The position numbers and the translations under genes are program-made. The notes beneath the pieces are model-generated. The model was given only the letters and a program-made list of their open reading frames with translations. It was not told the DNA's origin and ran no database searches. Below are positions 5,394 through 16,498 of a stretch of DNA of 64,000 nucleotides, piece by piece. The stretch spans positions 54,286-118,285 of the forward strand of contig CAVFCW010000004.1 of assembly GCA_963621245.1 (NCBI GenBank), written 5' to 3'. The stretch is from an uncultured Prevotella sp. GTDB taxonomy: Bacteria; Bacillota; Clostridia; Oscillospirales; Acutalibacteraceae. Positions within the stretch are counted from its first letter, which is position 1; each line of letters starts with the position of its first letter.

Positions 5394-5855
5394 ATGTCAG
5401 AATTTTCTCAGAAGCTAAGCGACAAACTCCGTGAGGTCAGTATGAACATCTCCCAGCTCGAGGAGGCGGCTTTAAAGGACAGCGGAATCGGGCTTACCCT
5501 GAGTGAAATGCATTTGCTTGGATTTATCTATAACTACGAGAACGCCTACGGCGTCGGTGCGGGAGTTAAGATAAGCGATATAGCCGATGCACTCAGCATA
5601 TCGAGGCCGTCGGCAACCGTGGGCGTAAAAAAACTGTTTTCAAAGGGCTATGTCCTCAAGACGCGTAACCCTGAGGACGGAAGAGTGATGGCGGCTTGTC
5701 TTACAACAAGCGGCAGACGGGTTTATAACCGTCACAGAAAGTCGCAGAGCGAGGTTCTCGAAAAACTCGAGAAAGAATTCACTCATGAACAGCAGGATAT
5801 TCTCCTGAGAGCGGTAGACAGAATGACCGAATATTTCAGGGGCTACAAAAAGTAA
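5394..5855 (+). CDS. MarR-family transcriptional regulator, FabT-like by position
   Basis: 153 aa with a winged helix-turn-helix (DIADALSISRPSATVGVKKLFSKGYVLKTRNPEDGR). It is the first gene of the fab cluster, as fabT is in streptococci and clostridia. Confidence 0.8.
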   Translation: MSEFSQKLSDKLREVSMNISQLEEAALKDSGIGLTLSEMHLLGFIYNYENAYGVGAGVKISDIADALSISRPSATVGVKKLFSKGYVLKTRNPEDGRVMAACLTTSGRRVYNRHRKSQSEVLEKLEKEFTHEQQDILLRAVDRMTEYFRGYKK

Positions 5856-5884
5856 TATTGAGTAAAGAGTAAAGGACAGAAAAA

Positions 5885-6847
5885 ATGAATTTCAAGGTAC
5901 TCGGTACGGGAAGCTACATTCCTCCGAGAGTTGTCACAAACGACGAGCTCTCGACAATGGTAGACGCAAACGATAAGTCGATAACAAAGCTTGTCGGAAT
6001 AAAAGAAAGACATGTTTCGGTAGACGAGAACACCTCACAGATGGGAACAAAGGCGGCTTTGGCGGCGCTTGAGAACAGCGGCACAAAAGCGGAGGACTTG
6101 GATCTCATCTTGGCGGTCACAATGACGGCGGAGTACGCAAACCCGGGTATATCTGCAATGATTCAGCGTGATATCGGTGCCACTTGTCCCGCAATGGATA
6201 TAGGCGGAGCCGCTTGCACAGGATTTATGTTCCTCATGGAAACCTGTGCTTCTTTTATGGCTACTGGAAAGTACAAAAAGGTTCTTTTGGTGGCAAGCGA
6301 AAGACTCAGCGGTATCACCGATTGGTCGGATAAAAACACGGCAATCATCTTTGCGGACGGTGCGGGCGCATTGGTCGTTTCCGACGAGGAAGATAATCTT
6401 CTTGCAAGCGAGCTTCACACCTACGGTGAGGACGAGACGATAGTCGTTCCCAGTGTGACAGGTGAAAGCCCGTTCTGGCAAGGCGAAAAGGTCGAGAAAG
6501 TAAGCATTTACATGAACGGCACAAAAACCTATCGTTTTGCCATTGCTCAGATGAGACAAATCATGGAAAATATGATGGATAAGCTCAGCATCACGGGGGA
6601 GGACATAAAGTGGGTACTTCCTCATCAGGCAAACATCAGAATTATCAACGAGGCAAAGAAAAAAATTCCGGTCGCTCAGGAAAAATTCAGAACAACAATC
6701 GAGAAGTACGGAAACATCTCTTCGGCTTGCATACCTGTTTTGCTCGATGAGCTCAACAGAAACGGCGAGATTCAGCGCGGTGATCTGCTTGCGATGGTTG
6801 CCTTCGGCGGCGGACTTCACAGCGGCGGCGCAATTCTTCGTTGGTAA
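5885..6847 (+). CDS. fabH: 3-oxoacyl-ACP synthase III
   Basis: 320 aa with KAS III motifs: GAACTGF (active-site Cys), HQAN, and GNISSACIP..FGGG. Confidence 0.95.
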   Translation: MNFKVLGTGSYIPPRVVTNDELSTMVDANDKSITKLVGIKERHVSVDENTSQMGTKAALAALENSGTKAEDLDLILAVTMTAEYANPGISAMIQRDIGATCPAMDIGGAACTGFMFLMETCASFMATGKYKKVLLVASERLSGITDWSDKNTAIIFADGAGALVVSDEEDNLLASELHTYGEDETIVVPSVTGESPFWQGEKVEKVSIYMNGTKTYRFAIAQMRQIMENMMDKLSITGEDIKWVLPHQANIRIINEAKKKIPVAQEKFRTTIEKYGNISSACIPVLLDELNRNGEIQRGDLLAMVAFGGGLHSGGAILRW

Positions 6848-6960
6848 AATTTAATGAATGAAATTTCTTCTACATATGTGGAAAAACATTCAAAAGTTAG
6901 CAAATTATTAATGATTTAAATATATAATAGTCCTACTGATAAGAAAGGATGCGAATTGAT

Positions 6961-7905
6961 ATGATAAAAACACCTCTTTGCGATTTGCTTGGAATCGAAT
7001 ATCCGATTTTCCAGGGCGGTATGGCATGGATAAGCGACGGAAAGTTAGCCGGCGCAGTCTCCGAGGCAGGCGGTCTCGGAATTATTTCCGCAATGAATGC
7101 AAACGCAGATTATTTGAGAGAGCAGATTAAAATTGCAAGGGAGATCACCGATAAGCCCTTTGGCGTTAACGTTATGCTCATGAGCCCGTATGCCGCTGAG
7201 GTTGCCGAGCTTATCGCCGAGGAGAAAGTTCCCGTTGTCACAACTGGAGCGGGAAATCCCTCAAAGTTTATGCCGCTTTGGCTTGAAGCGGGAATCAAAG
7301 TTATCCCCGTAGTATCAAGCGTAGGTATGGCTAAGCTTTGCACAAAGGTTGGCGCAACCGCAATAATTGCCGAGGGCAGCGAGTCCGGCGGACACATCGG
7401 TGAGACAAACACAATGCCGCTTGTTCCTCAGGTTGTGGACGCAACTGATCTTCCCGTAATTGCCGCAGGCGGAATTGCAGACGGCAGAGGAGTTGCCGCA
7501 GCGTTCATGCTCGGTGCAGTTGGAGTTCAGCTCGGAACAAGATTCCTTGTCGCAACAGAGTGTAATGTTCACCCGAATTACAAGAAAAAGATTTTAAAGG
7601 CTAACGACAGAGCAACAATCGCAACCGGAAAGAGACTCGGCCACCCCGTAAGAAGCATCGAGAACCAGTTCTCCAAGGGTTACTTCAAGGCAGAGTATTC
7701 CTCTATGCCGGATGAGGATCTCGAAAAGCTCGGCGGCGGCGCACTCAGAAAAGCAGCCGTTGAGGGCAACGAGAAAGAGGGTTGTTTCCTCGCAGGTCAG
7801 GTAGCAGGTATGGTCAATAAGGAGCAGTCTGCAAAGGAGATTATCACGGAGATCTTCACCGAAGCAGAAGAAGTGCTGAAAGGAGCAAACAAATGGCTAA
7901 GATAG
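6961..7905 (+). CDS. fabK: enoyl-ACP reductase II (FMN-dependent, NPD-like)
   Basis: MIKTPLCDLLGIEYPIFQGGMAWISD..GGLGIIS..AEGSESGGHIG is the FabK signature. ATG 6961 is preferred because ATG 6949 abuts its own SD. Confidence 0.9.
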   Translation: MIKTPLCDLLGIEYPIFQGGMAWISDGKLAGAVSEAGGLGIISAMNANADYLREQIKIAREITDKPFGVNVMLMSPYAAEVAELIAEEKVPVVTTGAGNPSKFMPLWLEAGIKVIPVVSSVGMAKLCTKVGATAIIAEGSESGGHIGETNTMPLVPQVVDATDLPVIAAGGIADGRGVAAAFMLGAVGVQLGTRFLVATECNVHPNYKKKILKANDRATIATGKRLGHPVRSIENQFSKGYFKAEYSSMPDEDLEKLGGGALRKAAVEGNEKEGCFLAGQVAGMVNKEQSAKEIITEIFTEAEEVLKGANKWLR

Positions 7906-8810
7906 CTTTTGTTTTTGCGGGACAGGGCGCTCAGTACGAGGGAATGGGAAAATCTCTTACCGAGAAGAGCAAAGCCGCAAAGGAAATTTTCGATATAGCT
8001 GATAAAGTAAGACCCGGAACAAGCGAGCAGTGCTTCACCGCTTCGCTCAGCGAGCTTTCGGTAACAAAGAACACTCAGCCGTGTCTTTATAACGTCGATT
8101 TGGCTTGCGCCGAGGCACTTCGTGAAAACGGAATTGTTCCCAATGCAGTAGCCGGATTTTCTCTCGGTGAGATTGCCGCAATTACATTTGCGGGAGTTGT
8201 CTCGCGTGAGGACGGCATGAAGATAGTCACAAAGAGAGGACTTCTCATGCAAGAGGCTGCAGGCAAGGTTGACAGCGCAATGGCGGCTGTTTTAAAACTC
8301 TCAAACGAAAAGGTCGAGGAGCTCGCTTCAAAGTACGACAAGGTTTATCCCGTTAACTACAATTGCCCGGGTCAGCTTGTTGTAGCGGGTGAGAAATCTG
8401 AGCTTGAGGCTTTTGCGGCTGACGTTGCCGAGGCAAAGGGCAGAGCAAAGATACTCAACGTAAGCGGCGGCTTCCACTCTCCGTTCATGGCAGAGGCGGC
8501 AGACGGTCTCTACGATGAGCTTAAAAATTACGAATTGAAGCTTCCCGAGATTCCCACTTACTCCAACTTTACAGCTAAGCCCTATTCAGAGAATGACGAT
8601 ATAGCTTCACTTCTTATGAATCAGGTCAAAAATCCCGTAAGATGGCAGCAGATAGTTGAGAGCATGATTGATGAAGGAATCGATACTTTCATCGAGTGCG
8701 GTGCGGGAAAAACCCTTTCGGGACTTATCAAGAAAATTAATAAAGAAGTTAAAGTATATAACGTTCAGGACGCCGAGAGCTTGGAAACTGTTCTTGGTGA
8801 GCTGAAGTAA
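7893..8810 (+). CDS. fabD: malonyl-CoA:ACP transacylase
   Basis: FVFAGQGAQYEGMG and GFSLGE (active-site Ser). The gene overlaps the fabK stop by 13 nt. Confidence 0.95.
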   Translation: MAKIAFVFAGQGAQYEGMGKSLTEKSKAAKEIFDIADKVRPGTSEQCFTASLSELSVTKNTQPCLYNVDLACAEALRENGIVPNAVAGFSLGEIAAITFAGVVSREDGMKIVTKRGLLMQEAAGKVDSAMAAVLKLSNEKVEELASKYDKVYPVNYNCPGQLVVAGEKSELEAFAADVAEAKGRAKILNVSGGFHSPFMAEAADGLYDELKNYELKLPEIPTYSNFTAKPYSENDDIASLLMNQVKNPVRWQQIVESMIDEGIDTFIECGAGKTLSGLIKKINKEVKVYNVQDAESLETVLGELK

Positions 8811-8825
8811 AAACAAGGAGACAAG

Positions 8826-9569
8826 ATGAGCTTTGATTTAAACGGCAAAATCGCTGTGGTCACGGGTGCGTCAAGCGGAATCGGTAAGGCAACAGCAATA
8901 AAGCTTGCCGAGTGCGGAGCAGACGTGGCGGTTATCTATTCATCATCAAAGGCGGGCGCTGACGAGGCGGTTGAAAAAATCACCGAACTCGGCAGAAAAG
9001 CGGTCGCATATAAGTGCAACGTAGCCGATACCGAGGAAGCCAAAACAACAATCGAGGCAATCCACAAGGAATTCGGCAGAATCGATATTCTCGTCAACAA
9101 TGCGGGAATCACAAGAGACAACCTCATCCTCAAGATGAAGGAGGAGGACTGGGACGCAGTTTTGAATGTCAATTTGAAGGGTGCGTTCAATATGATTAAG
9201 GCAAGCTACAGAATATTCAGCCGCCAGAGAAGCGGAAGAATTATTTCGATAACTTCGGCGTCGGGAATTATCGGCAATGCCGGTCAGGCAAACTATTCCT
9301 CGTCTAAGGCGGGTCTTATCGGACTTACCAAGTCTGTTGCAAGAGAGCTTGCCGGCAGAAACGTAACCGTGAACGCCGTTGCACCGGGATTTATCGAAAC
9401 ACCGATGACTGCGGGCTTTGACGACAGCAATCCGCTTGTTGCAAGTATACCGTTAAAGAGAATGGGCAAGCCCGAGGACGTGGCAAATGCGGTAAGCTTT
9501 TTGGCAAGCGACGAGGCAGAGTATATCACGGGCGTAGTTTTAAGCGTTGACGGCGGAATCGCAATGTGA
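8826..9569 (+). CDS. fabG: 3-oxoacyl-ACP reductase
   Basis: SDR motifs TGASSGIG, NNAGI and YSSSKAG, plus the C-terminal block typical of FabG. Confidence 0.95.
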   Translation: MSFDLNGKIAVVTGASSGIGKATAIKLAECGADVAVIYSSSKAGADEAVEKITELGRKAVAYKCNVADTEEAKTTIEAIHKEFGRIDILVNNAGITRDNLILKMKEEDWDAVLNVNLKGAFNMIKASYRIFSRQRSGRIISITSASGIIGNAGQANYSSSKAGLIGLTKSVARELAGRNVTVNAVAPGFIETPMTAGFDDSNPLVASIPLKRMGKPEDVANAVSFLASDEAEYITGVVLSVDGGIAM

Positions 9570-9637
9570 TAAGCGAAACCGTATGAATAAGAGGTTAAAT
9601 AATCTATATTAATCGTAGTTTACAGGGAATGTGTAAT

Positions 9638-10882
9638 ATGAACAGAGTAGTAGTTACAGGAATGGGAGTTGTGTCTCCTATCGGAAACAATGTGGAGGAG
9701 TTCTGGCAGAATCTTCGTGACGGAAAGAACGGAATCGATTTTCTTAAGGGAATCGACACCGAGAATCTTGAAGTTAAAATCGGCGGTGAGGTCAAGGACT
9801 TCGATGTCACAAAATATATGAAGAAGAGCGAGGCAAGAAAAGCCGACAAATTCACCCAGTTCGGTGTTGCCGCTGCCGCTCAGGCTATGGAGCAGTCGGG
9901 ACTTTCAACCGCCGAGGACGGAAACATCGCACCGTCAAGATTGGGCGTTTATTTCGGTTCCGGTATCGGCGGAATCCAGACCTTCTGCAACGAGCACACA
10001 AAACTTATGGAAAAAGGCCCGGGAAAAGTTTCTCCGTTCTTTATTCCTATGATGATTGCAAATATGTGTGCTGGTACCATTGCAATCAAGTACAGCGCAA
10101 AGGGCTCGGCTTTGCCGATGGTTACCGCTTGCGCAACCAGCAACAACACAATCGGCGAGGCTTACAGAGCAATTAAGCACGGCTATGCCGACGCAATCAT
10201 CGCCGGAGGTTCAGAGGCGGCAATCACAGAAATATCCGTAGCCGGCTTCACAAATATGAAGGCTCTTTCCACTAAGAACGACCCCGAAACAGCTTGCTGT
10301 CCATTTGACGTCAAGCGTGACGGATTCGTTATGGGCGAGGGTGCGGGCGCTCTCGTTCTCGAAAGCCTCGATCACGCTCTTGCAAGAGGCGCAAAGATTT
10401 TGGGCGAGATTGTCGGTTACGGTTCAACTTGCGACGCTTACCACATGACCGCACCGGACCCGACAGGCGAGGGCGGAGCAGAGTGCATGCGCCTTGCTCT
10501 TGAGGAAGCAAATATGCCCGATGAAACACATATCTATATCAACGCTCACGGCACAAGCACACCGCTTAACGATGTCAGCGAGACAAAGGTTATCAAGCTT
10601 GCCCTCGGTGAGGAGAGAGCTAAGAAGGCTGTTGTCAGCTCCACAAAGTCAATGACGGGCCATATGCTCGGCGCCGCAGGTGCTGTTGAGGCTATTGCAT
10701 CAATACTTGCAATCGAGCATCAGACAGTTCCGCCGACAATTCACTTGAACGAGCAGGATCCCGAGTGCGATCTCGACTGTTGCCCAAACACTGCAAGAGA
10801 GACAGAGATTAATCTTGCTCTTTCCAACGGTCTCGGATTCGGCGGCCACAACGCTTGTATCGCAATCAAGAAGTACAATTGA
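9638..10882 (+). CDS. fabF: 3-oxoacyl-ACP synthase II
   Basis: MNRVVVTGMG..ACATS..HGTSTP..GHMLGAAG..FGFGGHN is KAS II. ATG 9638 lies 9 nt after AGGGA. Confidence 0.95.
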   Translation: MNRVVVTGMGVVSPIGNNVEEFWQNLRDGKNGIDFLKGIDTENLEVKIGGEVKDFDVTKYMKKSEARKADKFTQFGVAAAAQAMEQSGLSTAEDGNIAPSRLGVYFGSGIGGIQTFCNEHTKLMEKGPGKVSPFFIPMMIANMCAGTIAIKYSAKGSALPMVTACATSNNTIGEAYRAIKHGYADAIIAGGSEAAITEISVAGFTNMKALSTKNDPETACCPFDVKRDGFVMGEGAGALVLESLDHALARGAKILGEIVGYGSTCDAYHMTAPDPTGEGGAECMRLALEEANMPDETHIYINAHGTSTPLNDVSETKVIKLALGEERAKKAVVSSTKSMTGHMLGAAGAVEAIASILAIEHQTVPPTIHLNEQDPECDLDCCPNTARETEINLALSNGLGFGGHNACIAIKKYN

Positions 10883-10909
10883 TATTTGTGTTTGACACAG
10901 AGGTCTGAT

Positions 10910-11332
10910 ATGAATAAAGAAGAAATAAAAAATATATTACCGCACCGCGAGCCTATGCTCCTCGTTGACGAGGTTGAGCTTGTCGACGGCGAGGCTCACG
11001 GCAAATGCTTCATTAAGGGCGACGAGTACTTTCTTCAGGGACATTTTCCCGGTCAGCCCGTCGTGCCGGGAGTCATCCTCTGCGAGATGATGGCTCAGTC
11101 GGCTTGCGTTTTGCTTGCGGGAGATGCCGTAAAGGGCTCCACACCGTTCTTCACGGGACTTGATAAGGTCAAGTTCAGAGGACAGGTTAAGCCCGGCGAT
11201 ACCTTTGAGACAAAATGCGTTCTCACGGGAAACAGGAGAAATTTCTACTTTGCAAGTGCTAAGGGCTATGTTAACGGCAAGCTTTGCGTAAGCGCCGATT
11301 TCAGCTTTGCACTTGTAAAAAACGAAGGTTAA
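10910..11332 (+). CDS. fabZ: 3-hydroxyacyl-ACP dehydratase
   Basis: ILPHREPMLLVD..GHFPGQPVVPGVILCEMMAQ is the FabZ hotdog motif. Confidence 0.93.
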   Translation: MNKEEIKNILPHREPMLLVDEVELVDGEAHGKCFIKGDEYFLQGHFPGQPVVPGVILCEMMAQSACVLLAGDAVKGSTPFFTGLDKVKFRGQVKPGDTFETKCVLTGNRRNFYFASAKGYVNGKLCVSADFSFALVKNEG

Positions 11333-11360
11333 CTTAAAGAACAAAAGAAGAGGTGCAGAC

Positions 11361-12230
11361 ATGCCTGTTAATTTTAAGAACTTCTTCAAGCCGAATTCAC
11401 ACGATAAGCAGGAACCCGAGGTTCATTCTGCCGCCGGTGTTGAGGACGGTTCTGCGGAAGCAAAAAAGACTTGCCCCGAATGCGGTAAGGAAACTCCCGA
11501 GGGAGAGCTTTGGGAGAATTTAAACGTATGCGAATGCGGTCATCATTTCAGAATGAATGCTCGCCAGAGAGTTGCATATTTAATCGGCAACGGTAAATTT
11601 GAGGAGCTGGACGAGGATATGAGCAGCAGCAATGTTCTCGATTTCCCGGGCTACGATGCAAAGCTTTCAAGCGCAAAGCTTCATTCTCACGAGAAAGAAT
11701 CCGTCATCGCGGGCGTTTGTGAGATTGGCGGAATAAAAACCGCACTTTTCGTCATGAACTCCGAGTTTATGATGGGAAGCATGGGTTCCGTTTGCGGCGA
11801 GAAAATCACAAGACTTTTTGAGTATGCAACATCAAACAAGCTCCCCGTAGTCGGTTATACCGTTTCGGGCGGCGCAAGAATGCAGGAGGGAATACTCTCC
11901 CTTATGCAGATGGCTAAAACAAGTGCGGCTGTAAGAAAGCACTCCGATGAGGGACTTCTCTACATTGCCGTTCTCACCGATCCGACCACAGGCGGCGTTA
12001 CCGCAAGCTTTGCCATGGAGGGAGATATTATTCTCGCCGAGCCCAAGGCAACCGTCGGTTTTGCCGGAAGAAGAGTTATCGAGCAGACCATAAGCAAGAA
12101 ACTTCCAAAGGAATTCCAGAAGTCGGAATTTTTGCTTGATCACGGTTTCATCGATAAAATAGTTCCGAGAAACGAGCAGAGAGAAGTCCTCTCTGAACTC
12201 TTGAAAATGCATGTGGGAGGTGCCGACTGA
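11361..12230 (+). CDS. accD: acetyl-CoA carboxylase carboxyltransferase beta subunit
   Basis: N-terminal zinc ribbon CPECG..CECGHHFRM, followed by the carboxyltransferase fold (GGARMQEG). Confidence 0.93.
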   Translation: MPVNFKNFFKPNSHDKQEPEVHSAAGVEDGSAEAKKTCPECGKETPEGELWENLNVCECGHHFRMNARQRVAYLIGNGKFEELDEDMSSSNVLDFPGYDAKLSSAKLHSHEKESVIAGVCEIGGIKTALFVMNSEFMMGSMGSVCGEKITRLFEYATSNKLPVVGYTVSGGARMQEGILSLMQMAKTSAAVRKHSDEGLLYIAVLTDPTTGGVTASFAMEGDIILAEPKATVGFAGRRVIEQTISKKLPKEFQKSEFLLDHGFIDKIVPRNEQREVLSELLKMHVGGAD

Positions 12231-12994
12231 TGACTGCTTATGAAAAGCTGAAAACAGCAAGAGGAAAGGGCAGACCTACCGGCTCTGACTATATCAACAA
12301 TATTTTCACCGATTTTATCGAGCTTCACGGCGACAGAAGATTCTCCGACGATCAGGCTATCGTTGCGGGCATAGCAAGACTTGACGGCGAGCCCGTCACG
12401 GTTATTGCCATCGAGCGCGGCAAGGATGTTTACGAGAGAATCAAGAGAAACTTCGGCTCACCGAATCCTGAGGGATACCGTAAGGCTCTGCGCCTTATGA
12501 AACAGGCTGAAAAATTCCATCGTCCGATTGTTTGCTTTGTCGATACGGCAGGCGCGTTCTGCGGCGTTGAGGCTGAGGAGAGAGGTCAGGGTCAGGCAAT
12601 TGCCGAGAACCTTTACGAGCTTATCGGACTCAAGACGCCAATGATTTCCGTTATCGTTGGCGAGGGCGGCTCAGGCGGTGCGCTTGCACTTGGCGTAGCC
12701 GACAGAGTTTGGATTATGGAAAACGCTTGCTATTCCGTTGTTTCTCCCGAGGGTTGCGCAAGCATCATCTGGAAGGACGCAAAGCGTGCCGACGAGGCTG
12801 CCGAGGCACTCCAGATAACAGCGGAGAGCATGGAAAAGCTCAAGGTTGTCGAAAAGGTTATCTCCGAGCAGAGAGAGCAAAGCGAGATATATGCCGATAT
12901 GAAAAATCAGCTTGAAGAAGAGATTAAAAACCTCAAAAAGCTCGATACCGATACTCTCTTGGAGCAGCGCTACAACAGATTCAGAGCATATTAA
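12230..12994 (+). CDS. accA: acetyl-CoA carboxylase carboxyltransferase alpha subunit
   Basis: ..FIELHGDRRF.DD.AIV.G..PVTVIA..RNFG...PEGYRKALRLM..AEKF.RPI..F.DT.GA. The ATGA overlap with accD suggests translational coupling. Confidence 0.93.
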   Translation: MTAYEKLKTARGKGRPTGSDYINNIFTDFIELHGDRRFSDDQAIVAGIARLDGEPVTVIAIERGKDVYERIKRNFGSPNPEGYRKALRLMKQAEKFHRPIVCFVDTAGAFCGVEAEERGQGQAIAENLYELIGLKTPMISVIVGEGGSGGALALGVADRVWIMENACYSVVSPEGCASIIWKDAKRADEAAEALQITAESMEKLKVVEKVISEQREQSEIYADMKNQLEEEIKNLKKLDTDTLLEQRYNRFRAY

Positions 12995-13016
12995 TAATAA
13001 AACAGTTTTATATAAA

Positions 13017-13051
13017 GAATCGTTTCCGAAAAAGGAAACGATTCTTTTTTT
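13017..13051 (+). terminator. intrinsic terminator of the fab/acc operon
   Basis: A perfect 11-bp stem, GAATCGTTTCC / GGAAACGATTC, followed by TTTTTTT. Confidence 0.8.
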
Positions 13052-13066
13052 CTGCCCTAAAAAGCT

Positions 13067-13109
13067 TGTCCGTTTTCTGTCCGCTTGGGATTTGTATAAT
13101 GAAATCACA
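13067..13109 (+). promoter_or_regulatory. promoter module copy 1 (TGTCC-N6-TGTCC-N12-TATAAT-GAAATCACA)
   Basis: The sequence is tgtcc gttttc tgtcc gcttgggatttg tataat gaaatcaca. The same architecture and spacing recur at 13529 and 14091. Confidence 0.5.
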
Positions 13110-13190
13110 ACAAAGGCAAGTAAGCCTTAAGAAAAAGAAAGAGATTATGAAAAAGACCTATACAAAAATTCAGAGAAAAGGAGAAACGTT

Positions 13191-13364
13191 ATGAGCTTTT
13201 ACATGAACAATCATATGGAGAACACAATAGGCAGCAACAGACACGAGGATACACTCATCAACCGTGAGGTAAGAATGCGTTACGGCATGGATATGACAAC
13301 AACGAGGGGAAGAAGATACATGGACGCTTGTGAGAACGATTCCTTCTTTCCTCAGGTACTGTAA
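13191..13364 (+). CDS. hypothetical small protein, 57 aa, hydrophilic, Met/Arg-rich (sORF1)
   Basis: AAGGAG lies 7 nt upstream of the ATG. The protein is MSFYMNNHMENTIGSNRHEDTLINREVRMRYGMDMTTTRGRRYMDACENDSFFPQVL. The ATG overlaps the TGA of a possible 15-codon uORF at 13147-13194. Confidence 0.45.
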   Translation: MSFYMNNHMENTIGSNRHEDTLINREVRMRYGMDMTTTRGRRYMDACENDSFFPQVL

Positions 13365-13388
13365 ATAAAAAAGGAGCTAATATAAAAA

Positions 13389-13523
13389 ATGGTAATGGCA
13401 GGATATTTAACAAAGGAAATCGGTTCGGCGGTATATATGGACAGCGTGCTCCCGTTTGTGAGCATCAAGCCGAAAGAGAGAAAAGCAAAAATACCGAAAA
13501 CAAAATCGGTGAAAAACAAATAA
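13389..13523 (+). CDS. hypothetical small protein, 44 aa, Lys-rich C-terminus (sORF2)
   Basis: AAGGAG lies 12 nt upstream, which is rather far. The protein is MVMAGYLTKEIGSAVYMDSVLPFVSIKPKERKAKIPKTKSVKNK. Confidence 0.35.
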   Translation: MVMAGYLTKEIGSAVYMDSVLPFVSIKPKERKAKIPKTKSVKNK

Positions 13524-13528
13524 AAATT

Positions 13529-13571
13529 TGTCCGATAATTGTCCTATCGGATGGGGTAAAATAAAATCACA
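13529..13571 (+). promoter_or_regulatory. promoter module copy 2 (TGTCC-N6-TGTCC-N12-TAAAAT-AAAATCACA)
   Basis: The sequence is tgtcc gataat tgtcc tatcggatgggg taaaat aaaatcaca. It can also be read as TTGTCC-17-TAAAAT (13539-13544 and 13562-13567). Confidence 0.5.
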
Positions 13572-13612
13572 TTAAAGAACAAAAACAACTTAAAAAAGAG
13601 GAGTAAAAACTT

Positions 13613-13726
13613 ATGATTCATGCGGTAGTTTTGGGAGCAATATTCGGAGCATATTTCACATACATAATTGCTTCACTTATTTATAACGCAGTTACGGAGA
13701 ATAAAGAAGAAACAGTAGGCGCATAA
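13613..13726 (+). CDS. hypothetical small membrane peptide, 37 aa (sORF3)
   Basis: GAGGAG lies 9 nt upstream. MIHAVVLGAIFGAYFTYIIASLIYNAVTENKEETVGA has one hydrophobic span and an acidic tail. Confidence 0.5.
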   Translation: MIHAVVLGAIFGAYFTYIIASLIYNAVTENKEETVGA

Positions 13727-13768
13727 AGACGAAAGCGCATACCGAGGTTTGAAAAAGAGGAGGAGAAT

Positions 13769-13942
13769 ATGGAGTTAATAGGACTTTTGGTTATGGCAGT
13801 TATTTCAGTGGTTATAATCTCAGCCATAGCATTTATAGGATTATACGGAATTTTCAGTTTGGTTAAATTCTTCGCAGTGGGAGCGGTTGTTCTCACGGGA
13901 GTCGGAGCTCTTGTGGGGCTCACGGGATTATTGATTGGTTAA
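13769..13942 (+). CDS. hypothetical small membrane protein, 57 aa, two hydrophobic spans (sORF4)
   Basis: GAGGAGGAG lies just upstream. The protein is MELIGLLVMAVISVVIISAIAFIGLYGIFSLVKFFAVGAVVLTGVGALVGLTGLLIG, and its second span is Gly-rich. Confidence 0.55.
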   Translation: MELIGLLVMAVISVVIISAIAFIGLYGIFSLVKFFAVGAVVLTGVGALVGLTGLLIG

Positions 13943-13953
13943 AGGAGGAAAAA

Positions 13954-14088
13954 ATGGATTTCAGTTTAGCGCACTTCTTCAGTTCGGTGGCGTCAAGAGT
14001 CATCACGGGAGTTATAGCATTCGTGATAGTCACTTATTTGTTTCCGGTTATCAGAGCGAGAAGAGAAAACAAAAAATTGAACGGATAA
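13954..14088 (+). CDS. hypothetical small membrane peptide, 44 aa (sORF5)
   Basis: AGGAGG lies 5 nt upstream, and the ORF starts 11 nt after the sORF4 stop. MDFSLAHFFSSVASRVITGVIAFVIVTYLFPVIRARRENKKLNG has one hydrophobic span and a basic tail. Confidence 0.55.
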   Translation: MDFSLAHFFSSVASRVITGVIAFVIVTYLFPVIRARRENKKLNG

Positions 14089-14090
14089 AA

Positions 14091-14133
14091 TGTCCTTTAT
14101 TTGTCCCACTCCAGGTGGTACAATAAAATCACA
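14091..14133 (+). promoter_or_regulatory. promoter module copy 3 (TGTCC-N6-TGTCC-N12-TACAAT-AAAATCACA)
   Basis: The sequence is tgtcc tttatt tgtcc cactccaggtgg tacaat aaaatcaca. It can also be read as TTGTCC-17-TAAAAT (14101-14106 and 14124-14129). Confidence 0.5.
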
Positions 14134-14177
14134 GTAAAGAACAAAACAAAAACAATAAATCAAAAAGGAGAAAAAAC

Positions 14178-14288
14178 ATGAGTTTGGGAACAGCACACAT
14201 CATATACACGGCACTGACAAGCATAGTCACCGTCATCATCGTAACAAAGCTTCTCACTTACATTGAGAGCAAGTATCCGACAAAATAA
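14178..14288 (+). CDS. hypothetical small membrane peptide, 36 aa (sORF6)
   Basis: AAGGAG lies 7 nt upstream. The protein is MSLGTAHIIYTALTSIVTVIIVTKLLTYIESKYPTK. Its N-terminus (SL..AH) and ..TY.. motif resemble sORF5. Confidence 0.5.
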   Translation: MSLGTAHIIYTALTSIVTVIIVTKLLTYIESKYPTK

Positions 14289-14398
14289 AACATCTTAAAA
14301 TTAAAACAATTTAAAAATTAAAAAATCAAAACACTTTTCACTAAAATAATTATTTAAATTCATCTAATCAAAAATTAAAAAAAGAGAGGTAACAAATT

Positions 14399-15091
14399 AT
14401 GAAGTATCAGATTCAGGGAGACAACTTACCGGTAGTAATATGCGAGCTCGATCAGAATGAGAGCATGGTAACACAGGACGGCGGAATGTCCTGGATGTCA
14501 CCCAACATGGAAATGAAAACAACAACAAACGGCGGTTTTAAGAAGGCATTCGGAAGAATGTTCTCAGGCGCCAAGATGTTCCAGAATATATACACAGCAA
14601 GAGACAGCGGCGGAATGATTGCATTTGCTTCCGATTTCCCCGGCTCAATCAGAGCGTTCGATATCGCCCCCGGCAACGAGATGATTTTGCAGAAGAGAGC
14701 ATATCTTGCAAGCGAATCGGGAGTAAACCTTGACATTTACTTCCAGAAAAAGATTTCCGGCGGATTTTTCAGCGGCGAGGGCTTCATTTTGCAGAAGATC
14801 TCGGGCAACGGAACCGTATTTGCAGAGTTTGACGGCCATGTCGTTGAGTACGGACTCGGCGAAGGTCAGCAGCTTGTTGTCGATACAGGCCATTTGGCAG
14901 CAATGAGCGCAACATGCAGCATTGAGATTAAGGGCGTTCCGGGACTTAAGAATAAGATTTTCGGCGGCGAGGGACTTTTCAACACCGTTATCACAGGCCC
15001 CGGCAGAGTTTGGCTCCAGACCATGCCGCTCAAGAATATGGCAGAGGCTCTCATGCCGTTTATGCCGCAGGCAAACGTAGAAATTAAGTAA
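14399..15091 (+). CDS. TIGR00266 / AIM24 (DUF124) family protein
   Basis: 230 aa. The pattern MKYQIQGDNLPVVICELDQNESMVTQDGGMSWM..GGFFSGEGFILQKISGNGTVFAEFDGHVVEY.L..GQQLVVDTGHLAA..GEGLFNTVITGPGRVWLQTMP is typical of this family. Confidence 0.85.
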   Translation: MKYQIQGDNLPVVICELDQNESMVTQDGGMSWMSPNMEMKTTTNGGFKKAFGRMFSGAKMFQNIYTARDSGGMIAFASDFPGSIRAFDIAPGNEMILQKRAYLASESGVNLDIYFQKKISGGFFSGEGFILQKISGNGTVFAEFDGHVVEYGLGEGQQLVVDTGHLAAMSATCSIEIKGVPGLKNKIFGGEGLFNTVITGPGRVWLQTMPLKNMAEALMPFMPQANVEIK

Positions 15092-15109
15092 TCCCCTGAA
15101 TATATTTGA

Positions 15110-15150
15110 AAACAAAGAACCGAGTCGAAATCGACTCGGTTCTTTGTTTT
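15110..15150. terminator. bidirectional intrinsic terminator between convergent genes
   Basis: An 18-bp stem, AACAAAGAACCGAGTCGA / TCGACTCGGTTCTTTGTT, with T-runs on both strands. Confidence 0.8.
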
Positions 15151-15325
15151 GGGTGTGTGTCTTTGGGTAATGTATGATAGGGTATTGTATGTAATCGTAG
15201 TATGTAGTGTTGCCAATCGGCATTAATCTTCTTTTCTTTCTTTTCTACTTCAAGTCAAACTTCTATAATTTTTCGATAACTTTCTTCTTTTCTTTTTACT
15301 TCTTTAATTCTTTCTTTTAGGGCTC

Positions 15326-16498
15326 TTAGCTCTCCAGTAAATCGGAGATATAGAACGCAAGCTGAAGACTCATTTTGTCCTCTGCGCTAAACTCAGAACC
15401 GAGAATTTCTTTTATTCTCTTAATCTGATAGTTAACCGTGTTTCTGTGAACATTACACTTAGCCGCAACCACCTGAATACTTGAGTTGCTGTCGAGATAA
15501 TCTCTCAAGACCTCACAGTAGTTCGTGTAATTTTTCTGGTCGAATTCCTCGAGTTTTCCGAGAACCTCGTTTTTGAAGCTGCGAAGCGTCTCGGCGGGAG
15601 TGACCGCAAGCAAAAGTCTGTAAACGCCCGTGTCGGCGTAATTCATAAGACGAACGGATTTTATGCTTGCAACTTTCATGGAAGAAATGCTCTGACGGTA
15701 AATTTCAGGAACCGACTGATAGCCGAATCCCACGCTCGAAAATCCGATTCTTATATCAAAAATAGGATTTTGCTCGACATATTCGTCTGCGGCGGCTAAA
15801 AGTTTTTCCGCAACCGTGTCGTGATCGATGCCGTAGAATATCATGATGAAGGTTTCGTCCTGAGTAAACATGCTCACCTGACGGGCGTCTCTCGCAAAAC
15901 ATTTCTGCATGAGATATTTAAGTCCGAGGTAATCGTGTCCGACAGGAACTCTCGTGTTCATAATAAGCTTTACAGCGGCTGTGCAGTAGCTTCCGTCATC
16001 GTGAAAACCGCGTCTGTCAAGAACAGGCACATAATCCTTTTGATTCTCCGGGGAGAAGATAAGGTTTCTGAATGCCGTTCCGAGGCTTATTTCAGATTCC
16101 TCGTTTGCGATAATTCTGTGACAGAAGTCATAGATAATATCGATGAGGTGAACGCTCCACGGGAGGGAGTAAAGCGGAAGGTGATGCTCCTCGCAGAAAT
16201 CGATGAGTTCCTTCGGCACCTCGGTGATGTACGGACCGAGGTTAACGCAAAGTCCCGCAGCGTTTTTTTCAATCATTTTCTCTGCAAAAGGAACAAGCCA
16301 GCCGAGGCTTCCGTACTTTTGCTGACCGATACCGGTTACAAAAAGCAACTCGTTTCCGTGAAGAAAATCGGGAACTTCAATATCCTCAACGAGGTGAACC
16401 CAACGGACAAAGCTTGATGTGCCCGCCTGACCCGCAAGGAGTTGCATACTGTATGTAGTTTCAGTGTTGTAGCAAAGCTGAGATAATGTAATAGCCAA
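15326..16498 (-). CDS. PucR-family transcriptional regulator
   Basis: The C-terminal PucR helix-turn-helix (VVAAKCNVHRNTVNYQIKRIKEILG) is preceded by a purine-catabolism-regulator-like N-domain. A TTG start at 16498 (giving MAITLSQL..) is preferred because AAGGAG lies 6 nt upstream. The track ORF runs to 16576. Confidence 0.8.
   Translation of the reverse strand: MAITLSQLCYNTETTYSMQLLAGQAGTSSFVRWVHLVEDIEVPDFLHGNELLFVTGIGQQKYGSLGWLVPFAEKMIEKNAAGLCVNLGPYITEVPKELIDFCEEHHLPLYSLPWSVHLIDIIYDFCHRIIANEESEISLGTAFRNLIFSPENQKDYVPVLDRRGFHDDGSYCTAAVKLIMNTRVPVGHDYLGLKYLMQKCFARDARQVSMFTQDETFIMIFYGIDHDTVAEKLLAAADEYVEQNPIFDIRIGFSSVGFGYQSVPEIYRQSISSMKVASIKSVRLMNYADTGVYRLLLAVTPAETLRSFKNEVLGKLEEFDQKNYTNYCEVLRDYLDSNSSIQVVAAKCNVHRNTVNYQIKRIKEILGSEFSAEDKMSLQLAFYISDLLES

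Follow-up and report, generated by a model that had tools for sequence, protein, structure and literature searches.

A cluster of six small open reading frames (sORF1 to sORF6) of 36-57 amino acids (aa) lies between accA and an AIM24-family gene in contig CAVFCW010000004.1 of assembly GCA_963621245.1 (positions 54,286 to 118,285, forward strand), a 64-kb stretch of DNA from an uncultured bacterium that is referred to below as the window. Conservation in sister species shows that the six sORFs are real protein-coding genes, and three copies of a shared promoter module split them into the units sORF1-2, sORF3-5 and sORF6. As judged from the copies of this module in sister genomes, the cluster is one island of a predicted lineage-specific, multi-island regulon rich in micro-proteins. 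We consider it moderately probable that one factor co-regulates this regulon, and that its hydrophobic peptides act in the membrane of the producer, possibly together with AIM24. An earlier note on this DNA, made from the sequence alone, had described the six sORFs but overlooked the feature that organizes them, namely the three promoter modules with tandem TGTCC boxes and no -35 box.

Coding evidence for the six sORFs

All six sORFs are on the plus strand. sORF1 (13191-13364, 57 aa) is hydrophilic and predicted to be a soluble micro-protein, and sORF2 (13389-13523, 44 aa), which ends in a Lys-rich tail, is predicted to be soluble or peripheral. sORF3 (13613-13726, 37 aa) has a single predicted span and an acidic tail that is variable, sORF4 (13769-13942, 57 aa) has two predicted spans, the second of which is Gly-rich, and both sORF5 (13954-14088, 44 aa) and sORF6 (14178-14288, 36 aa) have a single predicted span and a basic C-terminal tail. 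These coordinates and lengths agree with those of the earlier note, and each of the six has an ATG start and an upstream Shine-Dalgarno sequence (SD) of the GGAG type. The six sORFs occupy about three quarters of the interval between the AIM24 gene and the intrinsic terminator of accA (13014-13047, plus strand), a 14-bp stem followed by a T run that forms the upstream limit of the cluster.

Membrane character was predicted from the best 17-residue Kyte-Doolittle window, which scores 2.0-3.0 for sORF3 to sORF6 (2.02, 3.04, 2.43 and 2.06, respectively), compared to -0.56 for sORF1 and 1.13 for sORF2. Hydropathy thus gives one span in sORF3, sORF5 and sORF6 and two in sORF4, as expected for the four membrane peptides proposed earlier. 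The description of the locus as a cluster of small membrane proteins stands in that all six are genuine small proteins and four are of the membrane type, but does not extend to sORF1 and sORF2. sORF4 is an uncharged two-span hairpin with a grand average of hydropathy (GRAVY) of 2.21, and sORF5 has a net charge of +4. No signal peptide or leader was found in the hydrophobic peptides, and direct reading of the six sequences bore out the earlier remark that none of them has a double-glycine leader. An AlphaFold2 single-sequence model of sORF1 had a predicted local distance difference test score of 56, which is of low confidence and uninformative.

For comparison, 80 loci around AIM24 homologues were taken from species-representative genomes, among which the peptides are present only in the closest one (L001, 89% AIM24 identity). 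Three more sister genomes carry this locus according to a motif scan (L096, L107 and L106, the last of which ends at the contig edge). The coding comparison set the window against three complete orthologous loci from three sister species (L082, L096 and L107), in which all six ORFs recur with order and frames unchanged and with starts, stops and SDs conserved. The sole indel within a frame is a 6-nt insertion in sORF1, which is in frame. In comparison with the window, every sORF has a ratio of nonsynonymous to synonymous substitution rates (dN/dS, by the Nei-Gojobori method) of 0.04-0.18. This ratio ranges from 0.04 to 0.09 for sORF1, 0.04 to 0.11 for sORF2, 0.10 to 0.15 for sORF3 and 0.11 to 0.18 for sORF4, the length of which is 57 aa in all four species. 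For sORF5, dN is 0.13-0.16 with dS saturated; for sORF6, dN against the window is 0.19-0.20, again with dS saturated, and dN/dS among the sister species is 0.04-0.06. With the six sORFs pooled, the window and L082 differ at 33, 27 and 106 sites at codon positions 1, 2 and 3, respectively, corresponding to a dS of 0.98 and a dN of 0.11. The earlier note had proposed conservation of the reading frames in related genomes as a check, and the outcome is in favor of coding, as the frames are kept in three sister species, third-position changes dominate and dN/dS is low.

Within the species, the six ORFs are intact in all seven contigs examined (L117-L123). Public gene calls in the same-species contigs match the six lengths, apart from sORF5 in one contig, where it is uncalled and its ORF is intact. 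The public protein collection also includes the sORFs, under no name and with no Pfam hit. The statement that they fall below the cutoff of the ORF track is correct for the track used at that time, but all six were already in public gene calls. In proteins P0002, P0006 and P0007, public calls stretch the sORF1 orthologue upstream to 105-115 aa, through the promoter and the leader; these starts are over-extended.

Other proposals on the same interval fared differently. The 15-codon upstream ORF suggested at 13147-13194 (plus strand) has an ATG that is not conserved, being replaced by TAG in L082, L096 and L107 and by TAA in L106, and the segment is probably just part of the leader of promoter P1 (see below), not a gene. 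The suggested kinship of sORF5 and sORF6 is marginal, at 24% identity over 29 hydrophobic residues without composition correction, and a resemblance of this kind is not evidence of paralogy. By contrast, the 63-aa ORF on the plus strand (13935-14126) had been rightly dismissed, and is interrupted by stops in all three orthologues. The antisense ORF of 80 aa (13681-13923) varies from 62 to 80 aa across species, compared to the constant 57 aa and conserved SD of sORF4.

Searches against Pfam, NCBIfam, PHROGs and PADLOC gave no significant match for any of the six peptides, and no family can be assigned to them. The best NCBIfam/Pfam match was to SA1362_fam (16.6 bits versus a cut-off of 42, E = 0.0066), and a PHROG holin matched only at E = 0.07. 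The locus has no match in phage and plasmid DNA. A word-indexed protein search with sORF1 returned nothing, a word-indexed search of 5.8 billion proteins with sORF4 returned orthologues only, and a scan of JGI metagenomes with sORF2 patterns found nothing.

A promoter module with tandem TGTCC boxes

Alignment of three stretches of ~48 bp, starting at 13067, 13529 and 14091, revealed the shared pattern TGTCC-N6-TGTCC-N12-TAnAAT-N4-TCACAnnAAAG. The consensus of the module is TGTCC-N6-TGTCC-N12-TAtAAT-N4-TCACAnnAAA, with no -35 box, and in the window each copy precedes a leader rich in A and then the SD of the sORF that comes next. The exact TGTCC-N6-TGTCC arrangement occurs at only three sites in the window, all of them within the sORF cluster, and is absent from ~0.9 Mb of other Lachnospiraceae AIM24 loci.

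The first copy, P1 (13067-13114, plus strand), has its TGTCC boxes at 13067-13071 and 13078-13082, a -10 hexamer TATAAT at 13095-13100 and TCACAACAAA at 13105-13114. Its predicted start is at ~13107 on the plus strand, from which it would head sORF1 and sORF2, and it is conserved in L082, L096, L106, L107, L124 and L142. P2 (13529-13576, plus strand), with boxes at 13529-13533 and 13540-13544, TAAAAT at 13557-13562 and TCACA at 13567-13571, heads the predicted unit sORF3, sORF4 and sORF5 on the plus strand and is restricted to the species of the window. The corresponding interval holds a 45-aa sORF instead in L082, and neither the module nor that sORF in L096 and L107. An inverted repeat, CCGATA-N7-TATCGG, surrounds the second TGTCC box of P2 (13532-13550). 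P3 (14091-14138, plus strand) has boxes at 14091-14095 and 14102-14106, a TGn motif plus TACAAT at 14119-14124 and TCACA at 14129-14133. It is conserved in L082 and L096, and heads sORF6 and, by predicted read-through, the AIM24 gene, both on the plus strand.

Between P1 and the AIM24 gene, no plus-strand terminator was found between genes; one predicted site (13909-13927) falls inside sORF4. Since the plus strand has no intergenic terminator here, the three units are probably nested, all of them running into AIM24. The AIM24 gene (14399-15091, plus strand; 230 aa; Pfam PF01987, E = 4e-71) thus probably comes last in the transcription units, and a bidirectional terminator-like hairpin 3' of it (15122-15142) is their probable 3' end.

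To describe the architecture of the module, 50 unique copies were compared, in which the TGTCC boxes are invariant because the copies were selected on them. The boxes are 11 bp apart, at about -40 and -29, and lie 12 and 23 bp from the -10 hexamer. The latter is at a fixed register in all 50 copies (TATAAT in 25 and TAAAAT in 13), whereas the best match to a -35 hexamer at 16-18 bp reaches no more than three of six positions in any of them. TCACA is at a fixed register in 42 of the 50, and the spacers vary freely. This pattern looks like a protein footprint. In the window, the predicted first transcribed bases (13105-13114, 13567-13576 and 14129-14138) read TCACA(A/G/T)(C/T)AAA(G), and in the 42 copies that share it the TCACA start region is followed by A-rich, CA-repeat leaders. 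Such a conserved start hints at a role in initiation or in mRNA recognition.

The module is largely confined to one lineage. A strict 20-base pattern, which includes TCACAACAAA, matched 23 stretches in 185,579 species genomes, compared to ~1 estimated by chance, and all 23 are in four sister genomes (CAVBOS01, CAVDQG01, CAVAMJ01 and CAVKLS01); neither viral contigs nor JGI metagenomes contained it. Within the loci examined, each sister genome has at least 10-14 copies. A looser 18-base pattern matched 33 stretches in the same 185,579 genomes, with ~17 estimated by chance, mostly in Clostridia, intergenic and correctly oriented.

Several known factors were considered and set aside. The -10 of the module is the consensus sigma-A hexamer and the boxes, 12 and 23 bp away, are incompatible with a -35 element, so that an alternative sigma factor was rejected. 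The Spo0A 0A-box is TGTCGAA and the WalR site is TGTWAH-N5-TGTWAH; both were discarded for sequence mismatch, as C is invariant at position 5 of the module box. Membership in a Pho regulon was likewise dropped, as an alkaline-phosphatase-like gene beside one of the islands described below (island D) is without TGTCC boxes and no pst genes were seen behind the motif; the geometric analogy is kept.

Module-headed islands and turnover around AIM24

Most module copies in the sister genomes head other islands of 19-50-aa ORFs, of which there are at least four. Island B (L109, minus strand, ~5530 to 3300; L136, 4696-7000) has ~14 ORFs of 19-50 aa with a pooled dN/dS of 0.125. Island C (L127, 2292-4700; L138, 6569-8000) has ~12 ORFs of 25-40 aa with a pooled dN/dS of 0.093, and contains several internal promoter copies and tandem units of a promoter plus a 25-aa ORF. 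Island D (L131, L133, L134 and L135) consists of three ORFs of 26-34 aa with a pooled dN/dS of 0.03-0.11, and island E (L126, L129, L137 and L140) of two ORFs. Three of the four islands tested (B, C and D) are under purifying selection. Paralogue families occur in the islands, including MIKAMSI... (50 aa, two copies), MKPPRIPIIFLMDMNDFTKLL (two copies) and MPNILAIIFG..EIPEPYLCIR (three copies).

The module also heads larger genes in the sister genomes, the identities of which were taken from Pfam assignments. They include a CPBP/Rce1-like membrane protease, a 212-aa multi-span protein and two secreted paralogues, a barnase-family lipoprotein ribonuclease (RNase) with a barstar-glyoxalase fusion inhibitor, and a polyketide-like cluster comprising a phosphopantetheinyl transferase, an acyltransferase, a ketoreductase and a double ketosynthase, together with an ORF resembling acyl carrier protein and a FabZ-like dehydratase, both of which were recognized by eye and not scanned. 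These genes are found at L101 (6584-7855), L125, L139, L141, L113 (153 and 2372) and L108 (171, 1063 and 4169).

More distant relatives of the cluster indicate how it has changed. A phmmer search of 1.84 billion representatives with sORF1 found, besides one orthologue, a distant homologue of 54 aa with 41% identity (P0024); a further match, the 2720-aa HYR-repeat protein P0023, was judged spurious, a surface adhesin whose match is inflated by its repeats. When sORF2 was used for a profile search, orthologues and P0025 were found. In two loci of a more distant lineage, L124 and L142, a TGTCC module is followed by a sORF1 homologue (54 aa, 41% identity), a sORF2 homologue (62% identity in L124 and 69% in L142), a 30-36-aa ORF, a sORF3 homologue, a 42-aa ORF akin to the additional 45-aa sORF found in L082, a second TGTCC module and AIM24. 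This second module, the counterpart of P3, lies directly upstream of AIM24, without sORF6 (L124, 5300-5420; L142, 2415-2531). Because L124 and L142 keep sORF1-3 and AIM24 beside larC and not accA, the cluster travels with AIM24. sORF1-3 plus AIM24 are the older core, and sORF4-6 are additions in the lineage of the window, from which a 47-aa sORF has in turn been lost. Units thus turn over between species, with single sORFs and promoter modules gained or lost. The possibility that a small ORF generally precedes AIM24 was ruled out by 79 other loci that have none.

Directly upstream of the cluster in the window is a complete fatty-acid synthesis operon (5394-12994, ending in the terminator at 13014-13047) with genes for a MarR-type regulator, fabH, fabK, fabD, fabG, fabF, a fabZ-like gene, accD and accA. 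The placement of the sORF cluster between this operon and AIM24 is seen only in this lineage. In other Clostridia, a looser motif, TGTCC-N6-TGTCC-N11-GTAnAAT, precedes unrelated genes (L081, L083, L086, L088, L090, L093, L094, L098, L100, L103, L111 and L112), including a gene for a secreted protein in Agathobacter, a B12-radical-SAM gene in Roseburia, recA, and genes for large proteins resembling those of integrative and conjugative elements that share TGTCCTACATTTGTCC; these sites may reflect either a related factor or chance matches. In addition, bins labelled 'Bacteroides uniformis' or 'Bacteroidaceae bacterium' hold many contigs of the Lachnospiraceae lineage of CAVBOS01 (L096, L114, L125, L132, L133, L136, L139 and L140 in CAVDQG01; L105, L107, L108, L115, L126, L131 and L138 in CAVAMJ01), and these labels look wrong.

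Candidate mechanism, alternatives and known systems

We propose that the two TGTCC boxes are probably bound, on a single face of the helix, by one sequence-specific DNA-binding factor. Because boxes at about -40 and -29 are arranged as in PhoB pho boxes and SARP repeats, this factor is probably an activator of the class-II type that replaces the -35 contact in the winged-helix manner of PhoB/OmpR-type or SARP-type regulators, and activation is the simplest reading of the module. The factor would switch on the cluster and at least four other sORF islands, together with the CPBP-type protease, the secreted barnase-like RNase and its inhibitor, and the polyketide-like cluster. Transcripts would probably continue through AIM24 to the hairpin at 15122-15142, and the A-rich leaders and strong SDs would allow each sORF to be translated independently. 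The four hydrophobic peptides probably stay in the membrane of the producer and act there, possibly with AIM24; membrane retention is inferred from the uncharged sORF4 hairpin, the basic tails of sORF5 and sORF6, and the lack of a signal peptide or leader. The RNase and inhibitor, the CPBP protease, the polyketide-like genes and the secreted proteins suggest that the peptides belong to a conditional programme related to stationary phase, the envelope or competition.

Several observations weigh against this proposal. A TGn extended -10, which can function without a -35 element, is present in 29 of the 50 copies, so that the factor could instead be a repressor. In 11 of the 50, an inverted GGAC(A) lies 1-4 nt after the second box and forms an operator-like palindrome, TGTCC-N4-GGACA, in which it may act as an extra operator half-site. 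The similarity of the promoters could result partly from recent duplication rather than constraint, no regulator gene was found beside any island, and island E, with a dN/dS of 0.6-1.2 over few sites, is without clear purifying selection. The function of the regulon is inferred from gene content only. As for the link to AIM24, 79 other Lachnospiraceae AIM24 loci, with varied neighbors, have no such sORFs, and L124 and L142 have AIM24 without sORF4, sORF5 and sORF6, indicating that AIM24 does not need these peptides.

The main rival is that the peptides are exported without leaders as antimicrobial or surfactant-like molecules, similar to staphylococcal phenol-soluble modulins (PSMs) or multi-peptide bacteriocins, and that a quorum or stress regulator induces them along with immunity-type proteins. 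This reading, to which we give a minor share of our confidence, fits the content of the regulon: many tandem ORFs of 19-57 aa that have individual SDs and lack a signal peptide are spread over several islands under one promoter type; that promoter type also heads a CPBP/Rce1-like protease, a family often tied to bacteriocin immunity; and the secreted RNase with its inhibitor and the polyketide-like cluster give the regulon a flavor of competition. The AgrA-controlled psm-alpha and psm-beta operons likewise consist of tandem tiny ORFs with their own SDs and no signal peptide, under one regulator that binds direct repeats, as proposed for the module. In class II bacteriocin regulons (pln, blp and ComE-type), scattered small-peptide operons share one direct-repeat promoter, and CAAX/CPBP-type membrane proteases are included.

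However, the chemistry of the peptides is not supportive. sORF1 and sORF2 are hydrophilic, sORF3 is acidic and sORF4 is the uncharged hairpin described above, whereas PSMs are amphipathic and non-transmembrane, unlike sORF3-6, and share no sequence similarity with them. Searches assigned none of the six to a known family of bacteriocins or PSMs. The islands examined have neither an ABC exporter nor a histidine kinase or response regulator, and no Pmt-like exporter was seen; the cluster itself has no dedicated ABC transporter or immunity gene, its neighbors being accA, AIM24 and a PucR-family regulator. Compared to class II bacteriocin loci, the sORF loci lack double-glycine leaders, an ABC transporter and a cassette of peptide, histidine kinase and response regulator, the repeat geometry differs, and several of the peptides are hydrophilic or uncharged hairpins. 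The boxes of AgrA, a LytTR protein, also differ, as they are 9-bp repeats ~21 bp apart that lie upstream of the -35 element, whereas the repeats of the module have cores of 5 bp at a distance of 11 bp and overlap the -35 position.

It is improbable that sORF3, sORF5 and sORF6 are membrane-damaging peptides resembling type I toxins or holins, two of the specific candidate roles raised in the earlier note, for none of which did we find positive evidence. Toxins of the Fst/TxpA type have a hydrophobic N-terminal span and then a charged tail, and the three peptides share this layout, being, like the Fst/Ldr/TxpA-like toxins, of 36-44 aa with one span (best hydropathy 2.0-2.4); the weak, sub-threshold matches to the SA1362 family and to the PHROG holin point the same way. 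Nevertheless, none matches Fst, Ldr, Hok, TisB, TxpA or another toxin family above the Pfam/NCBIfam cut-offs, and they belong to multi-gene operons with strong, exposed SDs that are under purifying selection beside housekeeping genes in every strain. A convincing antisense unit of promoter plus terminator was not found, the sole promoter-like site on the minus strand being at 14424-14396, inside AIM24, and the hairpins having no matching promoter (by a consensus scan only, which a weak unit could escape). Nor is a holin supported by a lysin gene or by similarity to a phage or plasmid, none of which was found.

The weakest alternative, that the region is non-coding (a long structured RNA or an AIM24 leader) and its ORFs accidental, can draw on the very short length of the ORFs, their lack of family matches and the antisense ORF that shares wobble positions with sORF4, where codon-position counts alone cannot fix the strand, but it is effectively refuted by the conserved frames and SDs and the low dN/dS reported above, by the absence of an Rfam match at E <= 0.1 (three chance-level hits were far under the gathering score; 12000-16000) and by sORF1-3, whose protein sequences can still be recognized in L124 and L142, at 41-69% identity, despite diverged DNA.

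Of all parts of gut bacterial genomes, small proteins have the least annotation, and the candidates are mostly lone ORFs without an experimental handle. Here, each sORF has comparative coding evidence, and a sharply defined cis-element ties about a dozen promoters per genome into a testable regulon. The module could serve as bait for the regulator and the inducing signal, and lets micro-protein genes be annotated through their regulatory context instead of their length. The gain and loss of sORFs and modules between sister species shows the birth and loss of micro-protein genes. Moreover, the link to AIM24 is a first lead on the bacterial family, no functional study of which was found in the literature. 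A bolder proposal, which we offer as speculation and hold to be doubtful, is that one regulator commands several dozen leaderless micro-proteins in at least five islands of exchangeable promoter/sORF units, together with the RNase and inhibitor, the CPBP protease and the polyketide-like cluster, as an undescribed peptide-based programme of competition, signalling or membrane remodelling, with the window cluster and AIM24 as its conserved core.

Neither small membrane proteins nor co-regulated operons of small peptides are new in kind. A literature search on TGTCC direct repeats and tandem sORFs in Lachnospiraceae found nothing relevant, and we found no description of about a dozen -35-less module copies per genome that, within a single uncultured lineage of Lachnospiraceae, drive micro-ORFs by the dozen, unrelated to one another and located in several islands. 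For the peptides, a eukaryotic parallel is offered by Mic10 of MICOS (the system that organizes mitochondrial contact sites and cristae), a small hairpin protein with a glycine motif. One report ties yeast Aim24 to MICOS integrity (PMC3975624). The probable co-transcription of an AIM24-family protein and sORF4, a peptide of two spans with a Gly-rich second one, is thus reminiscent of Aim24 and Mic10, as an analogy only, from which L124 and L142, with AIM24 and no sORF4, and the 79 AIM24 loci without sORFs depart.

For the promoter, the closest likeness is to the PhoB/SARP type. There are differences from PhoB in the box, which is TGTCC in the module, and in the genes behind it, among which no pst or pho genes were seen; many copies also differ from both PhoB and SARP promoters in having an extended -10 or an inverted third half-site. 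Nevertheless, the TGTC core of the E. coli pho-box repeat, CTGTCAT, resembles that of the module. Both architectures place two direct repeats with an 11-bp periodicity at the -35 site in the absence of a -35 hexamer, with the proximal repeat ending ~10-12 bp upstream of a good -10, and this OmpR/PhoB-type geometry recurs throughout the 50 copies compared.

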